In this document: positions 12,821 through 41,800 of the stretch, piece by piece
How the letters are laid out: the number at the start of each line of letters is the position of its first letter
Position numbering within the stretch: position 1 is the first letter of the stretch
Origin: Candidatus Woesebacteria bacterium
Lineage (GTDB): Bacteria > Patescibacteriota > Microgenomatia > UBA8517
Assembly (NCBI GenBank): GCA_016700095.1
Contig: CP065002.1
Location: forward strand, 432,463-496,462
Direction of reading: 5' to 3'
Length of the DNA stretch: 64,000 bases
The notes under the pieces: generated by a model
Databases searched by the model: none
Seen by the model: only the letters and a program-made list of their open reading frames with translations
Told to the model about the DNA's origin: nothing
Position numbers and translations under genes: made by a program

Positions 12821-13678
12821 TTAATAATATTCGATTACCAACTGTGGTCTGTTGACTGAACCTTTTTGTTCAGAGGATATGAAATATACAAAATCTCCCG
12901 ATTTGTTTTCACCTAACGTTTCTTTCCCAAAATGAATTCTGAATTGACTTTGACCCCTGCCATTTGCAAAATCATCTCGCACGGCGTTAGTTACATCTGC
13001 TTCTTTCCAGCCGATATTTTTACTGGTTGAAATAGTAGCAAAATTGCTGACAAAAGCCGGCAGGGAATAGTCCTGGGCATCCAGACTATCTCCGTAGTTA
13101 AGGTGGTCCAATCTTAAATCACCAATTGTTGCGTAGGGATTTTCAGTAGTTTTAATTTGATAAAGCCTTAAAGAAGCCGCTTTAACAGTAACGCCTGTCG
13201 GAATAACTGTTAGATCAAAACTGACAAAACCGCGGGTAACACTCACACTATCTCGACCTATACGAATTTCTTTGTCGGAATAACCAATACCGTCGCTTGC
13301 CATGTAGCCGTCAAGATCTGCTTGTCCTAATACGATTTTGGTAACGGTCGGTTTTTCCGGAGCTTGGGTTAAGGGTATTTCCGTCCTGGTCGGTTTTGGT
13401 TGGGGCGTTAACCCTTGGGTTACCACTTCCACGGCGTCAGATTTTTCATCTTCTGTAATCCGTGCGTTTTTTCCTATTTGGGGTGCAGTTAACCTTCCGT
13501 AAGTGAATGACGCATAGGAGATGAGAATGATTACGATGATAATCGGGGTAATGATCAATATTTTGGAAAATTTGTTTTTCAATGTAACTTTGGTAGCCAT
13601 GGGCTTTGTTGTGGTTTCTAAATTCTGCGAAGAACTTTCTTTTTGAATATCCTGCGGTATATTGGATATATTGTCCAT
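12821..13678 (-). CDS. Hypothetical N-terminally membrane-anchored extracytoplasmic protein
   Basis: One TM segment near the N-terminus (ILIITPIIIVIILISY) followed by a ~220-aa soluble region. No recognised domain. Confidence 0.5.
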   Translation of the reverse strand: MDNISNIPQDIQKESSSQNLETTTKPMATKVTLKNKFSKILIITPIIIVIILISYASFTYGRLTAPQIGKNARITEDEKSDAVEVVTQGLTPQPKPTRTEIPLTQAPEKPTVTKIVLGQADLDGYMASDGIGYSDKEIRIGRDSVSVTRGFVSFDLTVIPTGVTVKAASLRLYQIKTTENPYATIGDLRLDHLNYGDSLDAQDYSLPAFVSNFATISTSKNIGWKEADVTNAVRDDFANGRGQSQFRIHFGKETLGENKSGDFVYFISSEQKGSVNRPQLVIEYY

Positions 13679-14882: not shown

Positions 14883-15404
14883 ATGTCCACAAAATTGGGG
14901 ACTATCTTTGTAGGTACTAAGCTTAAATCACATAAAAAAGCTCAAGGATCTTCTTTTGCCGGTGAAGACAGTATCAAACTTGATCGCCTTGAAAAAGTTG
15001 CCAACCATATAATTTTTGAAGTACAAACAGTTCCTATTATGGGGTTTATCAAAGGTGGAGATAAACTAACCATTTGCACAAACCGTATCGCGATAACCCG
15101 TCAGACGATGTTTTCTGATGAGGAACGGCCGATTGCGATCGAGAATATAACATGCGCCAGTGTTTATCGACATTTAATGTATGCTTCATTAAATATCGAC
15201 ACATTCGGTGTTCCCAAACCGGAACCGATAACGCGTTTAAAAATCCAAGACGCAAGACTTGCCAGACGTTATATTTTGGCGTTAATCGAATGTAAAAAAG
15301 CGGGGATAGATTTAACAAAATTTGAACTTGAAGAATTAAGAGAGCGCTTAAAAAATTTGGGTGCAGTGCGTTTTACTTCGGAGGAAAAATACCACGAACT
15401 CTAG
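14883..15404 (+). CDS. Hypothetical protein
   Basis: ATG start and coding-like composition. No domain recognised. Confidence 0.4.
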   Translation: MSTKLGTIFVGTKLKSHKKAQGSSFAGEDSIKLDRLEKVANHIIFEVQTVPIMGFIKGGDKLTICTNRIAITRQTMFSDEERPIAIENITCASVYRHLMYASLNIDTFGVPKPEPITRLKIQDARLARRYILALIECKKAGIDLTKFELEELRERLKNLGAVRFTSEEKYHEL

Positions 15405-15409
15405 AATAA

Positions 15410-15526
15410 GATGGTAGATGGTAGATGGTAGATGGTAGATGGTAGATGGTAGATGGTAGATGGTAGATGGTAGATGGTAGATGGTAGATGGTAGATGGTA
15501 GATGGTAGATGGTAGATGGTAGATGG
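15410..15526. repeat. Heptanucleotide microsatellite (GATGGTA)n, ~16 perfect copies ending in a degenerate GATGGGA
   Basis: Read directly. The antisense 'IYHLPST'n ORFs in the track are artefacts of this repeat. Confidence 0.95.
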
Positions 15527-15563
15527 GAGTGATTTTTAGATAGAATTGATTCATAATCAAAAT

Positions 15564-16163
15564 ATGTATTCCGATAGTCCGAAAGTTCCATATAGTTTCG
15601 TCAAAATACTATTTATATATTTAGAAGGAATTTTTACATCGTTACTATTTTTAATTTTGGTTGGTCTGACATATGTGGTTCTTACGGGCAATGAAATGGA
15701 AAATCTTATCCTTTTGTGGATTTCTTTTACTCCGTGGCTGGCACGGGAATTACGCAATAGCTATACGTTTGATGCAACTGACCTTGTTGCCTTTCTACTT
15801 GTTTGGGGAGCGGTGATAAGTGTTTTTAGCGAATTGGTTTTGCGAAAAACAAGGTTACAAAAGTATATCCCGATAATACTATTTGTTTTTGGCACGATCT
15901 TTTTCCCGACAACTTTAATCGTACTATCTTTACGTTTTGGAATTATTTTTGCACTTTTGTTTTTGGGTGTACCATTTGTTATTTACACTTTCTGCATGCT
16001 TATGCTTTTAGTATTTGCTGTTGCCAGGAGAAGGCGTGTGCAAAATAAGGCAGTTGAGAAAGTTATATCACTAGAAAGTCAAATACCATCCACCAACGAG
16101 TCGAAATTAGAAGCTGATTCTACCAACGCTCCCGATTCACAACTTACCAGGCACTGGGATTAA
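15564..16163 (+). CDS. Hypothetical integral membrane protein (≥5 TM helices, C-terminal cytoplasmic tail)
   Basis: The ORF-track start at 15546 is TTG. The first ATG is at 15564 (MYSDSPK…). Several hydrophobic stretches. Confidence 0.5.
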   Translation: MYSDSPKVPYSFVKILFIYLEGIFTSLLFLILVGLTYVVLTGNEMENLILLWISFTPWLARELRNSYTFDATDLVAFLLVWGAVISVFSELVLRKTRLQKYIPIILFVFGTIFFPTTLIVLSLRFGIIFALLFLGVPFVIYTFCMLMLLVFAVARRRRVQNKAVEKVISLESQIPSTNESKLEADSTNAPDSQLTRHWD

Positions 16164-16226: not shown

Positions 16227-16691
16227 ATGTTGAAAGTAAAGCCATTTAAACAAGAAACAGGTTATTGTGGTCCGGCGTCTCTTAAGATTGTATTGGATTA
16301 CTATGGTATTGAAGTAACAGAAAAAGAATTAGTTGATTCTACCGATTGTTCGGTGCAGATGGGTGTCGAAGCCGGAAGACTTCTTGAGGCAGCGTTGGAA
16401 TACGGTTTGGAAGGGTATATTAAAGATTTTGCCGATTTAACCGATATTAAAAATCAAGTTGTTGACAAACTCAGACCGGTTATTGTAGATTGGTTTTCCG
16501 AGGATGATGGTCATTATAGTGTTGTGGTAGATATCGACGATGAAAATATTTATTTACTCGATCCGGAAATGGGACACGTCAGAGCAATGCGACATACGAA
16601 ATTCTACCGCGTTTGGTTTGACTTTCCGGGTGATTACATTAAAGCAAAAGACGATCTTACAATCAGAAGGATGATAGTTGTATATAAATAA
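16227..16691 (+). CDS. Peptidase C39-like (papain-fold cysteine peptidase) domain protein, standalone
   Basis: N-terminal 'ETGYCGPASLKIVLDYYG' matches the C39 catalytic-Cys motif (xCGxAxLxMxxxYYG). Downstream His/Asp candidates are 'GHYSVVVDID' and 'GHV'. Confidence 0.6.
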   Translation: MLKVKPFKQETGYCGPASLKIVLDYYGIEVTEKELVDSTDCSVQMGVEAGRLLEAALEYGLEGYIKDFADLTDIKNQVVDKLRPVIVDWFSEDDGHYSVVVDIDDENIYLLDPEMGHVRAMRHTKFYRVWFDFPGDYIKAKDDLTIRRMIVVYK

Positions 16692-16701
16692 ATTCAAATA
16701 C

Positions 16702-17748
16702 ATGACACAAGACCCTGGCGGTAATAACAATTCTCACGATTTTCCCAATACGGTTGGAATACTCTATAGCGAAGTTAAAAGAGAATACTTTCCTACAGAA
16801 GATCAATACTTAACTGAAAAAGACGCCCTTCACGATGCTCAAGTGATTGCGACATATCTTGATAAACTTGGCTTAAAAACCTATCTTTACCCTGGGGTTC
16901 CGGATGTAATAAATAGTCTGAAAAAGGACAAACCGGACATGGTAATTAATTTGGTTGGCTCGGTAAATGGGCAGGAATATTTGTCCTCGACGATTCCGGG
17001 AATGTTGGAAAGTCTCGATATACCATATACCGGGGCGGGAATTCTGGGAGAGTCACTTGCGTATAACAAGTTTTTAATTAAAGAGCTTCTCAAAAGCCAC
17101 GGTATTCCTGTTCCAAATTTCCAATTATTACCTGATATTGCAACTCCGCTTAGTAGTGACCTTCGGTTTCCGCTAATTTCCAAATTAAACGAAATCCATG
17201 GTGGGGTAGAAATTACCAACGACTCGGTTTCAAATGATGAAAAGCACCTTCGTGAACGCGTGAAGTATTTAATTGGGACGTACAAACAGCCGGTTGTAGT
17301 CGAAGAGTTCATTGCCGGAAAAGAAGTAACTGCGATGTTACTGGAAGGATTGAACAAAAAGGTTTATATGGCAGAAAAAGTATTTAAAGATTATGGTAAT
17401 CCTAACGCGTTTGCAACTTTTGAAGATCAATGGTTGGAGTCGGGTAAAGATAGTTACCGATATGAAAAATTCAGTGACAGTAATTTATCTCATCTTGTTA
17501 AAAAAGCATTTGATGTGACGAGAATGAGTGATTATGGAAAGTTCGATGTGAGAATTGACCAGTCGGGCAGGTATTATTTTATTGATAGCAATAGTAATCC
17601 TGCCTTCGGGCCGAAAGAATTGTATTGTGCACTATCGCTTATTCTTGATTTATATGGAATAAACTTCGGCGAGATCGTTAAAAGATTGTTAATGAACACG
17701 ATGAGAGATGCCAGAGGTAAAGAGAAACTTTCTCCGGTAGAGGAGTAG
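16702..17748 (+). CDS. D-Ala–D-Ala-ligase-family ATP-grasp enzyme (ddl or Ddl-like amidoligase)
   Basis: Ddl N-domain '…MVINLVGSVNGQEYLSSTIPGMLESLDIPYTGAGILGESLAYNK…'. ATP-grasp C-domain '…VVVEEFIAGKEVTAMLLEG…FDVRIDQSGRYYFIDSNSNPAFGP'. The ORF-track start at 16678 is TTG. The first ATG is at 16702, 10 nt after the C39 stop. Confidence 0.65.
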   Translation: MTQDPGGNNNSHDFPNTVGILYSEVKREYFPTEDQYLTEKDALHDAQVIATYLDKLGLKTYLYPGVPDVINSLKKDKPDMVINLVGSVNGQEYLSSTIPGMLESLDIPYTGAGILGESLAYNKFLIKELLKSHGIPVPNFQLLPDIATPLSSDLRFPLISKLNEIHGGVEITNDSVSNDEKHLRERVKYLIGTYKQPVVVEEFIAGKEVTAMLLEGLNKKVYMAEKVFKDYGNPNAFATFEDQWLESGKDSYRYEKFSDSNLSHLVKKAFDVTRMSDYGKFDVRIDQSGRYYFIDSNSNPAFGPKELYCALSLILDLYGINFGEIVKRLLMNTMRDARGKEKLSPVEE

Positions 17749-17973: not shown

Positions 17974-18438
17974 ATGGATTATTACAATTTGCCTGAAACA
18001 GTAACTTTTCTTGTTAGTCAAAAAGCGTTTATCGTCGAAAAAGGCAAATTACTTCTTCTTCGGTATCCCATCAAACCCAATCGTGAATATAGCGGATATT
18101 GGGCTCTACCGGGAGGGTTACTTGAAATCGATGAAAAATTAGATTCAGGATTACTGCGCGAAGTTAAAGAAGAAACGGGCCTTAGTGTTGAGATTGGAAA
18201 ATTGGTAGCGGTTGGGGATTCGTATTTTGAAAATTTTGTTTTTGCAAACAAAAAAGTAACAGATGTCAGAATCGTGCAAATTGGATATGAATGCACATTG
18301 GTCGGGAAGATAAAAGTTATAATTAGTGATGAACACATGGCTTTCAAATGGGAAAAGCTTGATAACCTTAAAGACAATAAATTTACCCCCGACTGCGTGG
18401 ATTTGATAAACAAATACACCAGCTTACACACGGACTAG
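17974..18438 (+). CDS. NUDIX hydrolase
   Basis: Nudix box 'GGLLEIDEKLDSGLLREVKEETGL'. Confidence 0.8.
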   Translation: MDYYNLPETVTFLVSQKAFIVEKGKLLLLRYPIKPNREYSGYWALPGGLLEIDEKLDSGLLREVKEETGLSVEIGKLVAVGDSYFENFVFANKKVTDVRIVQIGYECTLVGKIKVIISDEHMAFKWEKLDNLKDNKFTPDCVDLINKYTSLHTD

Positions 18439-19964
18439 CTTTCGAAATCCGCTAGATTTATGTTAACTGGAAAGTTTTGTCCTTGTGCACCCAGTTTTGC
18501 ATTATGAGCTCTTTGTTCTTTGTAATGCCAATGGAGTAGATGGCAGCTTGTAAACCCGTAAACCCTTTTTTGATCACCTTCACCAACTACAAGCAAAAAA
18601 GCTCTTGGTGATACAGTCTGAGTTTCAGGTGATGTACTTAAACCAATATTTCCTTCTAGATAAGTAGTGTCTAGCTCAATAACACCGTTACTGACATTTA
18701 GCGGTATCGGGTCGACGTCAAAATTCCATTTGAAATTATCATATCCCGTTTTTTCATCTAAAGTAGCCGGGTAGAGTCTGGCAGTTGATGCACCCGGTGA
18801 TCCGGTAAAAGTATATTTATCAGACAGCTCTCCTTTTATAAATGGATCATCCCAAAAACTCATCTGTGATTCGAGAGGGCTTGCCATATTTTCGTCCCCA
18901 AATACAGATCTATGTACGACAAGTTCCTCTTGCGGAGATAAAGGGCTTTCACCACTAAAATAATATTTCCAGTCACTCAAGTGGTGGGATAACAAGTGTT
19001 TCTGCGATTGCGACAACTTCCAGAGCATAATATTGCCTGAGCCAATGTTTTCGGTTCGGGGCATTGTAGGATAGGATGTCCAGTTTTCGAGTCTTAGGTA
19101 ATAATTTAACAAATGATAATTATTGTAAAGTGTATGATGTGTTTGTTCGTGGATTAATCCCGTGTCGACGACTTTTCCTGAATCAGGATCTTTTGCTAAA
19201 AATCCTCCGGAAGTCGGATTATATGTTTTGGGGATTAAGTATCTTGCATACACATCTTTCGAATTGTGAATTGAAGTTACTGATCCATAAGGAGCACCGG
19301 GATAATTTTGTAACCACTGCTCATCAACGACGATGACTTTAATTGGATGATTACTGTTATCCATTCTTATACCATTTATTCCGTTTTCGGGTCTTGTTCC
19401 GGCAAGGAGTTTATTTGGTAAAGCTCTAAAATGATATTCAAGAAACGGTAATAGTTGTTCTCCATCTGCATTTAATCCATCCTGCCACATTTTAAAAGCC
19501 TCATGACCAACAAATATTTCCGGAGTCCTAACACTATTTTCAGGTAAATCTGTTTCCTTGCGACTATTAATGTAGATTTCTAGTTCGTGTGGTTTGAGAG
19601 GCGTTTTCCAACCAAGCGTGTGAACAAAAGTGTCCACCCCCTCACGGCTGACGAAATGTGTTTCCTGGAGATTATTAAATTCTTTCGATTCGGTTGTGTA
19701 TCTAGTGTCAGGAGTAGCCGTCGGTAAGATCAAGCCTTTATCGGCATTTGCAACAGGGGCTGGAGTTGGAAATACGGTTTCGTCACCACACGCCGCTAAA
19801 ACAACTGCTGCACCAACAGAAGGTAAAAATTGCAAGAACCTCCTTCTTCCTGGGTAAGGTACCCCTTGTTGTATAAGTTTCTTTCTTTCGCCTTCGGGGA
19901 CATTAAGAATGTTTTCTTCAGTAATATCTGCCATGTCTATATTTTGATTTAATATCTTAACCAA
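18435..19964 (-). CDS. Tat-signal lipoprotein, putative secreted zinc metallopeptidase-like (HExxH: 'LIHEQTHH')
   Basis: Twin-arginine motif 'PGRRRFLQF' plus lipobox 'LAAC'. One HEQTH motif. The track start is TTG and the first ATG (MADITEEN…) is at 19934. Confidence 0.5.
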   Translation of the reverse strand: MVKILNQNIDMADITEENILNVPEGERKKLIQQGVPYPGRRRFLQFLPSVGAAVVLAACGDETVFPTPAPVANADKGLILPTATPDTRYTTESKEFNNLQETHFVSREGVDTFVHTLGWKTPLKPHELEIYINSRKETDLPENSVRTPEIFVGHEAFKMWQDGLNADGEQLLPFLEYHFRALPNKLLAGTRPENGINGIRMDNSNHPIKVIVVDEQWLQNYPGAPYGSVTSIHNSKDVYARYLIPKTYNPTSGGFLAKDPDSGKVVDTGLIHEQTHHTLYNNYHLLNYYLRLENWTSYPTMPRTENIGSGNIMLWKLSQSQKHLLSHHLSDWKYYFSGESPLSPQEELVVHRSVFGDENMASPLESQMSFWDDPFIKGELSDKYTFTGSPGASTARLYPATLDEKTGYDNFKWNFDVDPIPLNVSNGVIELDTTYLEGNIGLSTSPETQTVSPRAFLLVVGEGDQKRVYGFTSCHLLHWHYKEQRAHNAKLGAQGQNFPVNINLADFES

Positions 19965-20058
19965 GGCAAGTGGTTAGTGTGATGAGTTACGGAAATTTAA
20001 ATGTTCCAAATAATTCTGCCTGAAAACTTGATGAAAGTAAGTTGTTTACTCATTAACA
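19850..20058. repeat. Copy 1 of a ~200-bp duplicated promoter + 5'-CDS module (partner at 20943-21140)
   Basis: Near-identical DNA: 'cttgttgtataagtttctttctttcgccttcggggacattaagaatgttttcttcagtaatatctg(c/t)catgtctatattttgatttaatatcttaaccaaggcaagtggttagtgt' and, farther upstream, 'gaaaacttgatgaaagta'. Confidence 0.85.
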
Positions 20059-21057
20059 TTATGCACCATGTGCAATTCTAATATTGTCGGCTAAATTTTC
20101 CAAAGCCTTTTGTTTCATTCCATCAATGTCCCTTAGTGGTTTAATATAGCCCTCATTTACTCCTGTACTTGCTATCATTGCCACAGCTTTTCCTGAGTCG
20201 TTAACTACTAGTGCACCACTAAAACCCGTTGTGAACGGAATGCTCGTTTTTATTACTTCACCTTCTTGCCTGGCTGTAAATGTCTTGGGTGAAACACCAT
20301 TGCTTTTTCTCGCGGCTTCTGTATATCCTATTGTGTGTAGATTTTCACTGGGATTTGGCACCCAATTAGTTGCAATGTCGCTAGTTGGGAACGGAGCGAA
20401 AGAAATAGCGTTAACGTCTTCCATTTTTATGGCAATAACAGCTTGATCAGATGGTTGATAAGCTTCCGTTGAAGAATCGTATTTTTTATCGACCGGGTAA
20501 GTGCTACTAAAGCCTATAAATAACGGTGTTACGGGTAAGTTTAATCCGGTGTGGATTTGATTCAAGTTAGTCTGTGCTTGGTGGGGTGGAAGGTCCGTTA
20601 TATTGTTAGCGGCGTGTCCTGCGGTCAGGATGTATGCAATGTTGTTTTCACTATCAACTTCCAGCAAAGTTGCGGTAGAAAATATTGGACTTTTTCCCTC
20701 ACCCATATGCATTTCCAGTCGAAAAGTAGATCGTTTCAAATTGACAGGTATTTGATCCAACTGTTCTTCAAATTCTTGCGGCGTCATTGCTTCCGAAGTT
20801 GCCGATATTGACGCTTGAGTTGTTGGAACAACGTCTTCGGCTGTTATTACAAGTCCCGGTGATGGTGTAATTTTTCTACCACACGCCGTTAAAGCAGTTG
20901 CTGTACCAACAGAAAATAAGATTTTCAGTATCTCCCTTCTTCCTGGTTTAGATACCCCTTGTTGTATAAGTTTCTTTCTTTCGCCTTCGGGGACATTAAG
21001 AATGTTTTCTTCAGTAATATCTGTCATGTCTATATTTTGATTTAATATCTTAACCAA
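20059..21057 (-). CDS. Tat-signal lipoprotein, trypsin-like (S1/chymotrypsin-fold) serine peptidase
   Basis: 'GRREILKIL' plus lipobox 'LTAC'. His motif 'YILTAGHAANN'. Ser motif 'GFSGALVVNDSG'. The N-terminal 35 aa are identical to the preceding gene. The likely ATG is at 21027. Confidence 0.55.
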   Translation of the reverse strand: MVKILNQNIDMTDITEENILNVPEGERKKLIQQGVSKPGRREILKILFSVGTATALTACGRKITPSPGLVITAEDVVPTTQASISATSEAMTPQEFEEQLDQIPVNLKRSTFRLEMHMGEGKSPIFSTATLLEVDSENNIAYILTAGHAANNITDLPPHQAQTNLNQIHTGLNLPVTPLFIGFSSTYPVDKKYDSSTEAYQPSDQAVIAIKMEDVNAISFAPFPTSDIATNWVPNPSENLHTIGYTEAARKSNGVSPKTFTARQEGEVIKTSIPFTTGFSGALVVNDSGKAVAMIASTGVNEGYIKPLRDIDGMKQKALENLADNIRIAHGA

Positions 21058-21140
21058 GGCAAGTGGTTAGTGTTATAAAGATGTCGCACATATCAAATAA
21101 TTACATATGAAAACTTGATGAAAGTAGTTGTGAGTGTATT
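20943..21140. repeat. Copy 2 of the duplicated promoter + 5'-CDS module
   Basis: See copy 1. Confidence 0.85.
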
Positions 21141-21170
21141 TAAGATGTAGAATTTCCGGTCACACACTTT

Positions 21171-22130
21171 TCACTTTGACTCATTTGCCAGTAAATTGTC
21201 ATACGCTTTTTGTTTCAAGTCCGGTATGTTGGTTAGATATCGAAAGGTCGTTTCGTTGGTATCAGATCTTGTGATAATACCTACACCGTTTCCTTGATCA
21301 TTTACGACAAGTGATCCGCTGCAACCACCCGAAACTGTAGATCCGAAAAAAGCTTTATTTTCTCCGGTTCTCGAAACATGTAAATTTATCGGGAAAATGC
21401 TATCTTGATGAAAAGCTGCAGAAGTGAAAGTGAGAGCATGTAGTTTTTCGCCTACGTTTGAGATTTGACCTGATATTAATTTTTCCATACCAAAAGGAGG
21501 GATATTTAATTCACCTTCGTATCTAATGGCAATAACTGCCTGATCGGGATTATTCATATCAATTGGTTCCTTCTCAAGACCAAGCGGTAGAGTAGATGCA
21601 TAGCCGTGTGAAACTTCTTCCACTTTTTCCCCGCAGTGGTTTTGAGTCAATTGTATTGTCGAATTTTCCTTAGATAACGAGTTTGCAATGTGCCCGTTTG
21701 TAAGTACATATACAATTTTATTTTGAGTATCAACTTCTATAACTGTTCCTGAGCCTTTCATTTCAGTTACCTTGTTTGATTCCGTGTCGAGATAGGGTGT
21801 AGTTATTTCTACACGAACGGCAGAGTTTACTAAGTTGGGTGGAATTTCCCGCATTTCTGCTTGATATATTTCCGGAGTGCGAGCTTCAGAGGTAGCGTTA
21901 ATAGCTGCGGTACGTGTGGTTTGTAACGCCTGGGAAGTTGCCTGTACTTGACCTGTGTTATCAGGCTCTGCGCAAGCGATAAGTAAAGATGGTGGTAGCG
22001 AAACGACGATCGCACATTTCGTTAGTACACCAAGCAATTTTCTTCTACCGGGGTTTATTACACCCCAACCTGCCAATGCCAGTGCTTTTTCATAGGGGAT
22101 ATATAAAATATCGGATTCGTTGTCAACCAT
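21171..22130 (-). CDS. Tat-signal lipoprotein, trypsin-like serine peptidase paralog
   Basis: 'GRRKLLGVL…LIAC'. His motif 'YVLTNGHIANS'. Ser motif 'GGCSGSLVVNDQG'. Confidence 0.55.
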   Translation of the reverse strand: MVDNESDILYIPYEKALALAGWGVINPGRRKLLGVLTKCAIVVSLPPSLLIACAEPDNTGQVQATSQALQTTRTAAINATSEARTPEIYQAEMREIPPNLVNSAVRVEITTPYLDTESNKVTEMKGSGTVIEVDTQNKIVYVLTNGHIANSLSKENSTIQLTQNHCGEKVEEVSHGYASTLPLGLEKEPIDMNNPDQAVIAIRYEGELNIPPFGMEKLISGQISNVGEKLHALTFTSAAFHQDSIFPINLHVSRTGENKAFFGSTVSGGCSGSLVVNDQGNGVGIITRSDTNETTFRYLTNIPDLKQKAYDNLLANESK

Positions 22131-22215
22131 GGTTATATTTTACTCTGCGCACGGCAACAAAGTTAGTATAATTTAAAAATACACAGTGCGTTATAATACA
22201 AAGGTTATATTCTTT

Positions 22216-23988
22216 ATGAAAAATATTTATAAAATAGTAAAGCTTTCTAAACCACAGCATAGTTGGATAATTTTTGTCTCACTTATTATTACCGTTCAGG
22301 CAATTTTGCAACAGGCGACACCCGTGACGCTCCGTTTTGTTGTCGACGAGTTATCAAACCAAATTAATGATACAAGTGGTGATTACCAAAAACTGGTTTC
22401 TTTGTTTCTTTTAATCTTAGTTATAAATATCACAGGCGTAATATTAAGCACGCTAAATCAAAGAATTGGGGATCACATCTCGTCACGTTTGGGAAAATAT
22501 TTGACCGAGGTGTATTACCGTAAAGTATTTACACTTCCTCAGAAATACTTTGACTCGGAAATTTCCGGCCAAATGGTCAATCAGCTTAATCGCGGAATTA
22601 ACTCGATCAGGGAGTTTGTTGGGGCAGCTACGAATTTTATTATGCCATCTTTGTTGCAAGCGATTTTCGGTATCGGCATATTACTTTACTATGATAAAAC
22701 AATCGGTCTTTTGGCGCTAAGCGTTTTTCCCGTTTATATTGCCATTTCTTCATATTCGACTACAAGATGGGGGAAACTTCAGGAAGAAAAAAATGTTCAC
22801 GAGGATCAAACCAGGGGGAGAATTCAGGAAGTAATAAGTAATATTAAACTCGTAAAAACTTACAACACGCAAATGAGTGAATGGAAATATGTCTCAGATA
22901 AATACAAAACTATAAATAAAATATATGACAAACAATCTACTCAATACCATATATTAAACTTCATCCGGGAATTCGGCTTGGAGATTTCTTTTGTGGCAAT
23001 TTTGTTTCTAGTTTTTCGAAAAACATTTTACGGAGAATTAAGTTTAGGAGAGATGGTTTTAATAATTCAACTTATGGGCCAACTAAGGTGGCCTTTGTAT
23101 GGTATGAGTTATATATTGGAGCGAATTCAACGCGCTGAAGCGGACTCGAAAGCGTTTTTTGAAGTACTTGCATTACAAGGAAGCGAAAAATTTATCGTAG
23201 GTAATATACAACGTGTCTTGAGAGATCCGGAAATTGAATTTACTAACGTCAGCTTTTCTTATGACGAGCAAGGAAAAGATGTTTTACATGATCTAAATTT
23301 AAAATTAGAAAAACGCCAGAAAGTGGCATTGGTTGGTCATTCCGGATCGGGAAAAACGACGCTTATTAATTTAATACTTAAGCTTTACGATCCGACTCAA
23401 GGATCGATAAAGATGTCGAGAAAAGATTATAGAAAAATTAATCACACAGTTATTCGAAACAATATCGCTCTTGTGTTTCAGGAAAACGAATTATTTTCAT
23501 CCACCATTCGCGAAAATGTAGCATATGGAATTAAAAATGCTACCGATAAACAGGTCATAAAAGCTTTGATTCAAGCAAACGCGTATAGTTTTGTAAAAAA
23601 ATATAAAGAAGGACTTGATGCAAAAATTGGTGAACGGGGAGTGAAATTATCAGGTGGGCAAAAGCAAAGAATTCAAATTGCCAGGGCAATACTACACGAC
23701 AAACCGATTTTAATTTTAGATGAAGCAACAAGTAGCCTAGATAGTAAATCGGAAAAATACGTGCAGGACGCACTGGAAAAATTAATGAAAAACAGGCTTG
23801 TAATCATTATTGCTCACCGTTTTTCGACAATTCAAAACGTCGATAGAGTTGTTGTTCTAAACAAAGGAAGAATTGTGGATAGCGGAAAACCTAAAGAACT
23901 GGCAGGAAGAAAGGGAATCTATTCGGAACTATTAAGGTATCAAATGGAAGGCAACAAGAAACTTCTAAGCGAATATGAATTGACGTGA
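22216..23988 (+). CDS. ABC transporter, fused permease/ATP-binding exporter (MsbA/ABCB-type)
   Basis: Six-TM N-domain. Walker A 'GHSGSGKTT', signature 'LSGGQKQRIQIARAIL', Walker B 'ILILDEATSSLD'. The track start at 22186 is GTG and the first ATG is at 22216. Confidence 0.85.
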   Translation: MKNIYKIVKLSKPQHSWIIFVSLIITVQAILQQATPVTLRFVVDELSNQINDTSGDYQKLVSLFLLILVINITGVILSTLNQRIGDHISSRLGKYLTEVYYRKVFTLPQKYFDSEISGQMVNQLNRGINSIREFVGAATNFIMPSLLQAIFGIGILLYYDKTIGLLALSVFPVYIAISSYSTTRWGKLQEEKNVHEDQTRGRIQEVISNIKLVKTYNTQMSEWKYVSDKYKTINKIYDKQSTQYHILNFIREFGLEISFVAILFLVFRKTFYGELSLGEMVLIIQLMGQLRWPLYGMSYILERIQRAEADSKAFFEVLALQGSEKFIVGNIQRVLRDPEIEFTNVSFSYDEQGKDVLHDLNLKLEKRQKVALVGHSGSGKTTLINLILKLYDPTQGSIKMSRKDYRKINHTVIRNNIALVFQENELFSSTIRENVAYGIKNATDKQVIKALIQANAYSFVKKYKEGLDAKIGERGVKLSGGQKQRIQIARAILHDKPILILDEATSSLDSKSEKYVQDALEKLMKNRLVIIIAHRFSTIQNVDRVVVLNKGRIVDSGKPKELAGRKGIYSELLRYQMEGNKKLLSEYELT

Positions 23989-24185
23989 TAACTTTCTTGA
24001 TTACGTTTTTTTAGTAATTCCACACGATTTAACGTGTTAATTAAGATTTGTCTTACCGCTGAAGGCGGAAAACACTGTAGCGCGTAAAGTATCAGCGTGT
24101 AAAATAAATTTCGGCGAGTAACAGGTAGGTGTATCATACCTTAGATTGTCACGTATTGTTTGCAAAGTAATGGTATAGTGTGAAT

Positions 24186-25085
24186 ATGAACCCGGAACGC
24201 AGCGGGTTAGTTAAGGTAAGAAATATTTCACTTACACTACTTTTCGGATTAACTTCTCTTGCGGGAGATACGGCTAATAATACTGTTTATTCTAATGAAG
24301 TCGGTACGCGTGCCACGTTAAGTGACGGAATAAATTATAAACAGGAAATAGTAGACAGCCCAAGCACTCTTCGTATCCATACGATTGAAATACCCGACAT
24401 TTCCAGAGTGGGGTTTTTGGTTACGCCCCCTCAAACAATTAACGGTTGGGAAACGTCGGCGCAAACACTGGTTGACCAGATAGGGGGAGTAGTTGATAGA
24501 TTTAAGGTGGTAGTAGCGGTTAATGCTAATTTTTTTGAACCGTTTGAATCCGGCATCTATCCTAACTACGGCGATGGTATTAATATTTTAGGACAGGCAG
24601 TATCACAAGGAATTGAATTCTCGCCTCCCCAGGAAAAATACCCTGTATTGTGTATCGGCGATATTTTGTCGGTAGACGAAAGTGCTTGTCCAACGGAAAC
24701 TGAAAATGTGATTGCGGGTAACGTGCTTCTAATTAACGAGGGTGAAATTGCCGATTTTTATGATGATAACGAAAAACATCCCCGAACCGCGATGGGAATT
24801 AGTGAAGACGGAAAAAGCTTGTGGATCGTCGTTGTTGACGGACGCCAGAAGAAAAGTGAAGGAGTAACACTTACAAAATTGTCAGAGATACTTCTTAGAT
24901 ATAACGTCTATCAAGCGATTAACTTTGATGGCGGAGGATCTTGCACGCTCATTTTTGTTGATGAAAATGGCAACATCAAGTTACTAAATATTCCGGTGAA
25001 TAAACCGTCGGCGTATTCACCAGGTCGTATGGGATTGACTAGAAACATAGGCGATAGTTTGATGATAGGAAATAGTAAGGAGTAA
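24186..25085 (+). CDS. Secreted phosphodiester-glycosidase-family (NAGPA/DUF2233-like) protein
   Basis: Signal-peptide-like N-terminus and C-terminal 'NFDGGGSCTLIF' (family motif NxDGGGS(S/T)). Confidence 0.5.
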   Translation: MNPERSGLVKVRNISLTLLFGLTSLAGDTANNTVYSNEVGTRATLSDGINYKQEIVDSPSTLRIHTIEIPDISRVGFLVTPPQTINGWETSAQTLVDQIGGVVDRFKVVVAVNANFFEPFESGIYPNYGDGINILGQAVSQGIEFSPPQEKYPVLCIGDILSVDESACPTETENVIAGNVLLINEGEIADFYDDNEKHPRTAMGISEDGKSLWIVVVDGRQKKSEGVTLTKLSEILLRYNVYQAINFDGGGSCTLIFVDENGNIKLLNIPVNKPSAYSPGRMGLTRNIGDSLMIGNSKE

Positions 25086-37989: not shown

Positions 37990-38316
37990 TTAGTGTGAAA
38001 TGGGTTCAAGTTGTAGATGATTTTCGATTCTTTCAACTCTTTCGAGTAGTCGAATGAACTCTCTGTCTAAGAAATTAATTGCTTTATCGAGCTTTCTGTC
38101 TAACTTATCTATTCTTTGGTTTAGTCTCTTTTCCAAATCAATGATCTCTTTATGGACAATTTTTCCAGTTTCCACTTGAACAATCTTTGTAGTTTCGTCA
38201 TGCACAATCTTTCTCGTTTCCGCCTGAACAATTTTGGGAGTTTCCGTTTGTACAATCTTAGTCGTTTGTTCTTGAACAATCTTTGCTATCTGATTAAGAT
38301 CTGTCTTTGTTAACAT
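37990..38316 (-). CDS. Hypothetical coiled-coil protein with 8-aa tandem repeats (ETxKIVQ/H)x6
   Basis: 'KIVQTETPKIVQAETRKIVHDETTKIVQVETGKIVHKEI', from a 24-bp DNA periodicity (ACAATCTT core). Confidence 0.45.
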   Translation of the reverse strand: MLTKTDLNQIAKIVQEQTTKIVQTETPKIVQAETRKIVHDETTKIVQVETGKIVHKEIIDLEKRLNQRIDKLDRKLDKAINFLDREFIRLLERVERIENHLQLEPISH

Positions 38317-41557: not shown

Positions 41558-41631
41558 TGGCAGGGGTGGAGGGAATCGAACCCCCAATAGCGGTTTTGGA
41601 GACCGCTGTTATACCATTTAACTACACCCCT
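41558..41631 (-). tRNA. tRNA-Trp (anticodon CCA)
   Basis: Reverse complement AGGGGTGTAGTTAAATGGTATAACAGCGGTCTCCAAAACCGCTATTGGGGGTTCGATTCCCTCCACCCCTGCCA. 7-bp acceptor, anticodon loop CUCCAAA, GGTTCGATTCC T-loop, encoded CCA. Confidence 0.9.
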
Positions 41632-41635
41632 ATAT

Positions 41636-41800
41636 AACAAACAACAAACAACAACCAACACCCAACCTTCCAGCAAACAACAACCAACCCCCAACAAACA
41701 ACAAACAACAACCAACACCCAACCTTCCAGCAAACAACAAACAACCCCCAACAAACAACATACAACAACCAACCTTCCAACAAACAACTTCTTTAGGTTG
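41636..41800. repeat. CA-rich tandem repeat (~57-bp unit, ~2.5 copies, built from ACAAACAAC motifs)
   Basis: 'aacaaacaacaaccaacacccaaccttccagcaaacaaca…' occurs twice plus a partial third copy. The antisense 'VVCCLL' ORF is an artefact. Confidence 0.85.

Follow-up and report, generated by a model that had tools for sequence, protein, structure and literature searches.

Three neighbouring genes for predicted Tat-type lipoprotein hydrolases in a Woesebacteria genome

Two neighbouring genes in the small genome (1.27 Mb) of a Woesebacteria (CPR) bacterium begin with almost the same DNA and continue into different mature proteins. How did they come to share a beginning, and what do they and a third gene beside them encode? 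The window analysed here, the whole stretch of DNA under study, is 64 kb long. All three genes lie on its minus strand: gene A (NCBI IPM62_02160; 18435..19934, 499 aa), gene B (IPM62_02165; 20059..21027, 322 aa), and gene C (IPM62_02170; 21171..22130, 319 aa). Gene B encodes a lipobox-bearing serine peptidase of chymotrypsin fold (Pfam and an alignment to DegP) and gene C is its paralog (BLASTP). Gene A is built from a leader of the B/C Tat-lipoprotein type, a body of a rare HExxH family, and a C-terminal beta-rich domain. We consider it reasonably probable, taking the account as a whole, that the three products are Tat-type lipoprotein hydrolases, that B and C are old paralogs, and that the leader of A was copied from the B lineage.

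The coordinates above use the NCBI starts. In A and B the ATG lies 10 codons inside an ORF opening with TTG and aligns with the ATG of gene C, and the NCBI annotation uses this ATG for both genes. It is most likely the true start. The shared N-terminal peptide quoted in the original prediction is thus correct in sequence, but its start is moved from the TTG to the ATG downstream.

Serine peptidases and a rare HExxH family

Gene B matches Pfam Trypsin_2 (PF13365) with 31.4 bits, above the gathering score of 27.6, and gene C falls just under it with 25.3 bits. The two proteins are 31% identical over their full length (BLASTP, E=2e-39). The catalytic triad of B, placed by a profile alignment to DegP, consists of His138 (TAGH, 20614-20625), Asp194 (DQAVIAI, 20428-20448), and Ser270 (GFSG, 20215-20226), all on the minus strand. 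The corresponding motifs of C, on the same strand, are H147 (TNGH, 21690-21701), D196 (DQAVIAI, 21525-21545), and S271 (GCSG, 21315-21326). In both proteins they align in canonical order to TNsHV, DiAli, and GNSGGP of DegP. Judged from their sequences, B and C are old paralogs with a predicted chymotrypsin fold and an intact His/Asp/Ser triad, and the earlier reading of trypsin-fold motifs in two of the genes holds, for C as a clear paralog of B. They resemble Trypsin_2 enzymes of the HtrA-DegP type in these motifs but lack PDZ domains.

B and C are also similar to the lipoprotein proteases of Mollicutes (DUF31 and the MIP Ig-specific endopeptidase) in being predicted lipid-anchored enzymes of a reduced-genome cell. 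Gene C weakly matches both Mollicutes models, in the region around the catalytic Ser only (MIP model NF045841, 25.9 bits against a cut-off of 125; DUF31, PF01732, 17.4 bits against 27). Membership of B and C in these families was rejected because the scores are far under threshold. A word search of 5.8 billion proteins detected no relatives of B and C, so the cassette is not comparable across genomes.

A search of 1.84 billion representative proteins finds about a dozen relatives of gene A, whose family is known almost only from metagenomes; the two traceable members of the family come from a Patescibacteria MAG and from groundwater samples of ultra-small cells. The putative metal site of A (19113..19166, minus strand) includes D257 (19164-19166), HEQTH at residues 262-266 (19137-19151), and H274 (19113-19115). 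H168, D257, H262, E263, H266, and H274 are invariant in 11 sequences of the family, giving a motif D...HExxH(x7)H that is fixed among homologs of only ~25-37% identity. In the AF2 model (pLDDT 71.9, pTM 0.73) the HExxH lies in a predicted helix (258-268) that follows a beta-sheet, and H274 comes just after the helix. The family is probably one of zinc-dependent hydrolases or peptidases, and the product of A would then act by metal-dependent catalysis.

The arrangement is like that of metzincins and other zincins (e.g., ADAM17/TACE and ulilysin), where the HExxH helix also follows a beta-sheet and an invariant His lies past a turn. Unlike in metzincins, the third His of gene A is at +12 from the first and not at +10, and the Gly of HExxHxxGxxH is not found at its position. 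Foldseek ranks the TACE catalytic domain first (E=0.5, TM-score ~0.3), with ulilysin also near the top, and these matches are non-significant. Gene A matches no Pfam or NCBIfam peptidase family; one family member matches SprT-like at E=0.15. Of the proposed metallopeptidase-like nature of A, the HExxH therefore stands as an invariant family feature, whereas structure prediction finds no significant match to a peptidase fold, an outcome named in advance as refuting; the metallopeptidase label is putative and based on a short motif.

It is possible, though we think it doubtful, that A is another metal-dependent hydrolase, or a binding protein in which the HExxH has a different role. This would fit the lack of a significant peptidase match, and a conserved C-terminal motif rich in aromatic residues and His (FTSWHLxYWHWxEQ), together with a beta-sandwich domain, suggests ligand or glycan binding. 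Against it, the Asp, the HExxH, and the downstream His are kept through the wide divergence of the family, the helix is placed as in zincins, and TACE and ulilysin, the only peptidase-like neighbours, head the non-significant structural list. A zinc-dependent hydrolase or peptidase remains the preferred assignment.

Twin-arginine leaders

The leaders of A, B, and C are ordered alike: the N-region is long, a twin-arginine motif and then a short h-region follow, and a lipobox cysteine comes last. The predicted signal peptides, all on the minus strand, cover residues 1-48 of A (19791..19934; RR 30-31 at 19842-19847), 1-48 of B (20884..21027; RR 30-31 at 20935-20940), and 1-52 of C (21975..22130; RR 29-30 at 22041-22046). 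The N-regions are acidic and 28-29 residues long. The arginines occur in PGRRRFLQFL (A), PGRREILKIL (B), and PGRRKLLGVL (C), each followed by 14-17 uncharged residues. We judge these to agree with the consensus (S/T)-R-R-x-F-L-K, yet G replaces S/T at -1 in all three. B and C conserve E6, I9-L10, P13, G24-V25, and P-G-R-R.

Profile searches separate the three. The leader of A scores 17.9 bits with NCBIfam TIGR01409 (TAT_signal_seq) and so passes the cut-off of 16.7. B and C have no match to the Tat-signal models of Pfam (PF10518) or NCBIfam (TIGR01409) even at E<=10, and RREIL of B is outside the TatP-style pattern RR.[FGAVML][LITMVF]. A profile searched against the PDB gives weak matches to NapA, hydrogenase, and arsenite oxidase in their Tat leaders. 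No tatA or tatC was found within the 64-kb window, and the same holds for lgt and lspA; the class Microgenomatia is reported to have TatA and TatC (PMC9166423). The Tat plus lipobox layout proposed for the three genes is therefore present as motifs in all of them, and is backed by a Tat model in A but not in B and C.

From these features A, B, and C are probably exported by the Tat route. It is unlikely that they are ordinary Sec-dependent lipoproteins in which RR merely supplies the positive charge of the n-region. The failure of the Tat models on B and C, the absence of Tat genes from the window, and the usual export of proteases in unfolded form would agree with Sec. However, RR is invariant in the three, with P-G before it and x-hydrophobic-L after it; an acidic n-region of this length is atypical of Sec/SPII signals; A passes TIGR01409; and canonical SRRxFLK signals are found throughout the gene A family (Pfam TAT_signal matches 7 of its 14 members).

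Tat-dependent lipoproteins, which are also found in Streptomyces, likewise join a twin-arginine motif, a weakly hydrophobic h-region, and a lipobox cysteine. The present leaders differ from the known ones in their CPR host, in their unusually long and conserved acidic N-region, and in their cargo, which consists of hydrolases or proteases with predicted export and lipidation and not of redox or substrate-binding proteins. The Tat/SPII lipoprotein signal class is known in the literature, including from haloarchaea, and is a class of SignalP 6.0 (PMC9287161, PMC2945643).

The shared repeat and its origin

The DNA common to A and B is a 199-nt repeat of 90% identity, aligned without gaps. One copy (19785..19983, minus strand) stops at the Cys-Gly codons in gene A and the other (20878..21076, minus strand) lies in gene B. 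A 38-mer taken from the repeat is present at exactly two places in the window (0 expected, 100 shuffles). The claim of about 200 bp of near-identical upstream and leader DNA is thereby borne out. The core is a 5' tract running from -46 to +75 relative to the ATG (46 nt upstream plus codons 1-25; 19860..19980 in A and 20953..21073 in B, minus strand), with 1 mismatch in 121 nt. Identity is 76% from +76 to +150, which includes the Cys-Gly codons, and 31% in the next 85 nt, as for random sequence. The similarity thus ends precisely at the signal-peptide/mature boundary. Further upstream, a 33-nt block of 85% identity is found in the B-A spacer (20007..20039, minus strand) and in the C-B spacer (21094-21126).

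The tract probably contains the promoter. In A, a putative promoter (TTGCCT, 17 nt, CAAAAT; 19941..19969, minus strand) can be read from the sequence, its -10 box ending 7 nt before the ATG, and B has an identical copy (21034-21062, minus strand). Gene C has a TAAAAT box (22137-22142, minus strand). Boxes resembling a -10 element are most frequent at position -7 relative to start codons across the window, which has hardly any Shine-Dalgarno sequences. The position of the box suggests a leaderless mRNA for gene A, and the original placement of a promoter within the duplicated DNA is plausible.

Codons 1-25 of A and B have no synonymous difference. Of the 14 residues conserved between them in codons 26-50, 13 are encoded by the same codon (~3.9 expected, P ~4e-7), and in this part dN (0.35) exceeds dS (0.14). 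The latter is unusual and comes from few sites, so a single-event history of the copying is not secure. Could selection on a nucleic-acid element, i.e., a promoter or operator plus RNA structure, keep the 121 nt identical in place of recent gene conversion? Co-regulation of A and B would favour identical control DNA, and the first 46 nt precede the ATG. We consider this quite unlikely: the other 75 nt are coding and still free of synonymous differences, RNA folding is unremarkable (z-scores -0.27, +1.08, +0.70, and +0.16), Rfam has no match in the tract, and gene C retains the protein features of the leader but not its DNA sequence. Recent copying or conversion of the leader is the better explanation. 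Of the recent tandem duplication with module shuffling that had been proposed, the recent part applies to the A/B leader and not to the B/C duplication, in which the proteins are only 31% identical.

The homologs of gene A elsewhere indicate the direction. They have their own canonical Tat signals, (S/T)RRxFLK, with N-regions unrelated to that of A, implying that the ancestral Tat leader of A was replaced by the B/C-type leader of its neighbour. Since gene C, the paralog of B, already has the same leader architecture, the transfer would have gone from the B lineage to A. The idea of a conserved leader fused to new cargo gives way to that of a leader swap. In the sequence of events that we infer, B and C would derive from an ancient duplication of a chymotrypsin-fold serine peptidase, and a gene of the A family, whose members as a rule have a Tat signal of their own for export, would have received a copied segment of ~260 nt. 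This segment would comprise the promoter region, the 29-residue N-region, RR, the h-region, and the lipobox, with its junction exactly at the signal-peptide/mature boundary. Its 5' 121 nt would still be 99% identical, or have been made so again by gene conversion, and each gene would probably have its own promoter, set for a leaderless transcript.

The lipoboxes are LAAC in A (19788-19799, Cys49 at 19788-19790), LTAC in B (20881-20892, Cys49), and LIAC in C (21972-21983, Cys53), all on the minus strand. In each, the h-region closes with the pattern [LVI][ASTVI][GAS]C, preceded by uncharged residues, and the three genes are the only ORFs with a credible lipobox within the 64 kb. After export, the proteins made with these twin-arginine-type signal peptides would most likely be cleaved at the lipobox, and the lipidated cysteine would anchor them to the cytoplasmic membrane on its outer face. 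The N-terminus could otherwise be an uncleaved signal anchor, with the N-region a small cytoplasmic domain and the cysteine incidental. The N-region is conserved as protein even between B and C and is partly helical by low-confidence prediction. This reading is very unlikely given that a perfect lipobox closes the h-region in all three, that lipoboxes occur independently in two A-family homologs (P0005, LAGC; P0007, LAAC), and that the h-regions are short for a stable transmembrane helix.

The pattern of a common promoter with differing mature parts is the same as in the Borrelia Erp/UHB family, whose leader peptides are reportedly shared too (Marconi in 1996 and Akins in 1999 are said to have found this). 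The Borrelia leaders are Sec-type, and there are many copies on prophage plasmids, while the present genes form a chromosomal tandem trio with Tat-type leaders and near-identical DNA in two copies only. The Erp (OspE/F-related) lipoprotein genes have differing mature parts and similar promoters, the upstream homology box (UHB), and papers on them also discuss leader peptides (PMC7002432).

The neighbouring exporter and the meaning of the locus

An ABC half-transporter with ABC_membrane and ABC_tran domains (Pfam; 22186..23988, plus strand) is divergent from gene C, the ORFs being 55 nt apart. It shares the type-I transmembrane domain and nucleotide-binding domain of MsbA-type half-transporters. 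Unlike MsbA, it belongs to a CPR host, a group generally considered to have neither an outer membrane nor lipid A. Patescibacteria are predicted to be Gram-positive-like (PMC9166423). The description as MsbA-like is right in that MsbA (TIGR02203) is the best NCBIfam model, but with 385 bits against an equivalog cut-off of 602 only a generic exporter can be named. That it cooperates with the three hydrolases, e.g., by exporting products, a substrate, or an inhibitor, is highly improbable: adjacency across the short spacer is all that speaks for the suggested functional link, while lipoproteins of the Tat or Sec route do without an ABC exporter, this one is below every NCBIfam cut-off, and A-family genes have no ABC neighbour at any of 5 independent loci elsewhere.

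The observation at this locus is real and the original prediction was partly right; the locus is a tidy and fairly ordinary case of gene-family evolution. A bolder reading, which we hold to be distinctly unlikely, is that the promoter and the 29-residue acidic N-region form a portable export and regulation module spread by recombination, and that A founds a family of Tat-exported zincins at the episymbiont-host interface. The N-region could then, for example, dock a cytoplasmic holdase or inhibitor, so that folded proteases would do no harm before their Tat export, and no member of this new, Patescibacteria-associated zincin family would have been recognised before gene A. Apart from this bolder reading, the originally proposed use of the three genes as a protease arsenal in an epibiotic way of life is an inference only.

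The surface enzymes of CPR/Patescibacteria, which are believed to live in attachment to other cells, are little known. If the account preferred here is true, the locus would offer a small set of candidate surface-anchored proteases using the folded-protein (Tat) route, an uncharacterised HExxH family that comes from this bacterial group where its origin is traceable, and a clear case in which one enzyme gene acquired the promoter and signal peptide of another, unrelated one. General concepts are unchanged by it, and it would be useful mainly for annotation and for choosing targets in studies of the CPR cell surface.

A leader common to two different genes

The window is part of a 1.27-Mb contig in a MAG labeled 'Candidatus Woesebacteria bacterium'. 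Three neighbouring genes lie on its minus strand: gene A (18435-19934; 499 aa, NCBI IPM62_02160), gene B (20059-21027; 322 aa, NCBI IPM62_02165), and gene C (21171-22130; 319 aa, NCBI IPM62_02170). The original prediction opened the ORFs of A and B at TTG. These starts are ruled out in favor of an ATG ten codons further in, which lines up with gene C's ATG and is also the start given by NCBI. Residues and codons of A and B are therefore numbered from this ATG.

Near-identical DNA had been noticed at the starts of A and B, and this is borne out. The segments 19785-19983 and 20878-21076 are 90% identical over 199 nt without a gap, and a 38-mer of the repeat occurs exactly twice in the window against an expectation of 0. 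Counted from the ATG, the 121 nt at -46 to +75 differ at one position only. Identity is 76% over +76 to +150, which takes in RR motif, h-region, and lipobox as far as and including the Cys-Gly codons. In the 85 nt beyond the Cys-Gly codons it falls to 31%, the random level, and an additional block of 33 nt lies further upstream (20007-20039 vs. 21094-21126, 85% identical). The duplicated unit is thus the upstream region and exactly one signal peptide. The window has no third copy of this leader. In protein sets of 5.8 billion and 1.84 billion sequences it was found in A and B only, and an exact 32-mer search of the JGI metagenomes gave no copy. An RNA element in the conserved tract was considered and rejected (no Rfam match, folding z-scores of -0.27 to +1.08).

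Predicted peptidases behind the leader

The likeness of A to B is confined to residues 1-83. When 1.84 billion representative proteins were scanned exhaustively with HMMER, 17 matched at E<=0.001; around a dozen of these are true homologs (25-37% identity). One of the homologs belongs to a 'Patescibacteria group bacterium' MAG, and another derives from 0.1-µm-filtered groundwater at Hainich. GTDB genomes, searched with the single protein, gave no relatives. The HExxH motif of the original prediction is present, and H262-E263-x-x-H266 is invariant in the family together with H168, D257, and H274. A canonical Tat motif (e.g., SRRDFLK, TRRDVLK) opens almost every full-length member, and Pfam TAT_signal matches 7 of 14 members. 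In two independent assemblies, from JGI and ENA (locus L009, 8001-9457; locus L010, 7096-8552), one homolog (P0010) occurs as two overlapping ORFs (326 and 168 aa); this is either a genuine pseudogene with a frameshift or a site of recoding.

Compared along the whole of both proteins, B and C share 31% identity (E=2e-39), and faint DNA remnants recur about 1.1 kb apart, so the two are old tandem paralogs. The trypsin-fold His and Ser motifs proposed for these genes hold up. A B+C profile aligns to DegP-type proteases with the catalytic His (TAGH/TNGH), Asp (DQAVIAI), and Ser (GFSG/GCSG) in place; B passes Pfam Trypsin_2 (31.4 bits, cut-off 27.6) and C, at 25.3 bits, is just under. Gene C is also weakly similar around the serine to the Mycoplasma DUF31 and MIP proteases, with scores far under their cut-offs. 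Whether the query was B by itself or the B+C profile, a word search of 5.8 billion proteins returned only the window's own proteins; GTDB genomes and JGI metagenomes, when scanned, gave no relatives. Despite the 31% overall identity, a linker I(S/N)ATSEA(M/R)TP is identical at 8 of 10 positions between B (20770-20830, minus strand, residues about 74-83) and C (21860-21920, minus strand, residues about 78-87). Cleavage for maturation or to release a pro-peptide may occur here.

Export, promoter, and history of the leader

The layout of twin-arginine motif and lipobox described earlier is present in all three genes, which are the sole credible lipobox ORFs of the 64-kb window. RR falls within residues 29-31, and the lipoboxes are canonical (A, LAAC, Cys49; B, LTAC, Cys49; C, LIAC, Cys53). 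A P-G-R-R-x-hydrophobic-L core is invariant across A, B, and C. Protein-level conservation of the long acidic N-region extends even to the B-C pair (E6, I9-L10, P13, G24-V25), which fits Tat leaders better than Sec leaders. The leader of A passes TIGR01409 TAT_signal_seq (17.9 bits, cut-off 16.7); those of B and C match no Tat model. Gene A is probably a Tat-lipoprotein, and for B and C the same assignment is slightly favored. TatA and TatC are reported for the class Microgenomatia (PMC9166423). In the 64-kb window no Tat genes were found by phmmer with E. coli and B. subtilis TatA/TatC queries, or by Pfam on suitably sized candidate ORFs.

The identical upstream DNA of A and B reads TTGCCT, 17 nt, CAAAAT, 6 nt, ATG; gene C has TAAAAT, 6 nt, ATG. 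At the 44 gene starts of the window Shine-Dalgarno sequences are almost absent and TATAAT-like boxes peak 7 nt upstream of the start codon; in 14 of the 44 genes a box with at least 5/6 matches ends at -5 to -10. Given this box spacing and the scarcity of Shine-Dalgarno sequences, the A/B upstream DNA is plausibly a promoter for leaderless transcripts, and the same pattern suggests that leaderless mRNAs are widespread in this genome.

Gene C already has a B-type leader, and A homologs elsewhere have unrelated N-regions. This points to a leader native to the B/C lineage, which would have been moved onto A, displacing A's own Tat signal. Synonymous sites suggest that the leader is young throughout its length. 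Codons 1-25 of A and B have no synonymous differences, and in codons 26-50 the identical codon is used at 13 of 14 conserved residues (about 3.9 expected, P about 4e-7). Changes of amino acid cluster in codons 26-48 (dN 0.35, dS 0.14), suggesting either that the h-region changed fast after one transfer or that a later conversion tract re-homogenized the first 121 nt.

Neighboring genes and related systems

An ABC half-transporter (22186-23988, plus strand) is divergent to the three genes. The proposed functional link between this exporter and the hydrolases has no support beyond adjacency. The exporter is a generic type-I transporter (best match MsbA, 385 bits, cut-off 602), and A-family loci elsewhere have no ABC, B/C-like, or other recurrent neighbor. 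The exporter has no C39 domain of its own. At 4.5 kb from it (16227-17748, plus strand), the genes of a stand-alone C39-like cysteine peptidase (154 aa) and a D-Ala-D-Ala-ligase-type ATP-grasp enzyme (356 aa) share 14 nt; the two may be a peptide-modifying pair. A NAGPA phosphodiester glycosidase (24180-25085, plus strand), whose N-terminal hydrophobic segment looks Sec-type by eye, and a DNRLRE-domain protein (12821-13678, minus strand) near the three hydrolase genes are likely secreted. Three tandem repeats were also seen. (AGATGGT) x 16.9, at 100% identity, fills 15409-15526 in the spacer of genes 14883-15404 and 15546-16163 and could be a slippage-prone, phase-variable tract. A CAA/CCA-rich compound repeat (41636-41791; period 57, 2.4 copies, 97% identity) adjoins tRNA-Trp (41558-41631), and a degenerate 24/48-nt repeat (38151-38285, 70-75% identity) is found where long ORFs are lacking.

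Trypsin_2 proteases are ubiquitous. The signal class of Tat-dependent lipoproteins is already established (PMC9287161, PMC2945643). The Borrelia UHB/Erp family resembles A and B in having a common promoter region on lipoprotein genes with different mature parts, and its leader peptides have also been discussed (PMC7002432). Less ordinary are the rarity of A's family, with its Patescibacteria and groundwater origin, and the apparently clean replacement of one Tat leader by another at the lipobox.
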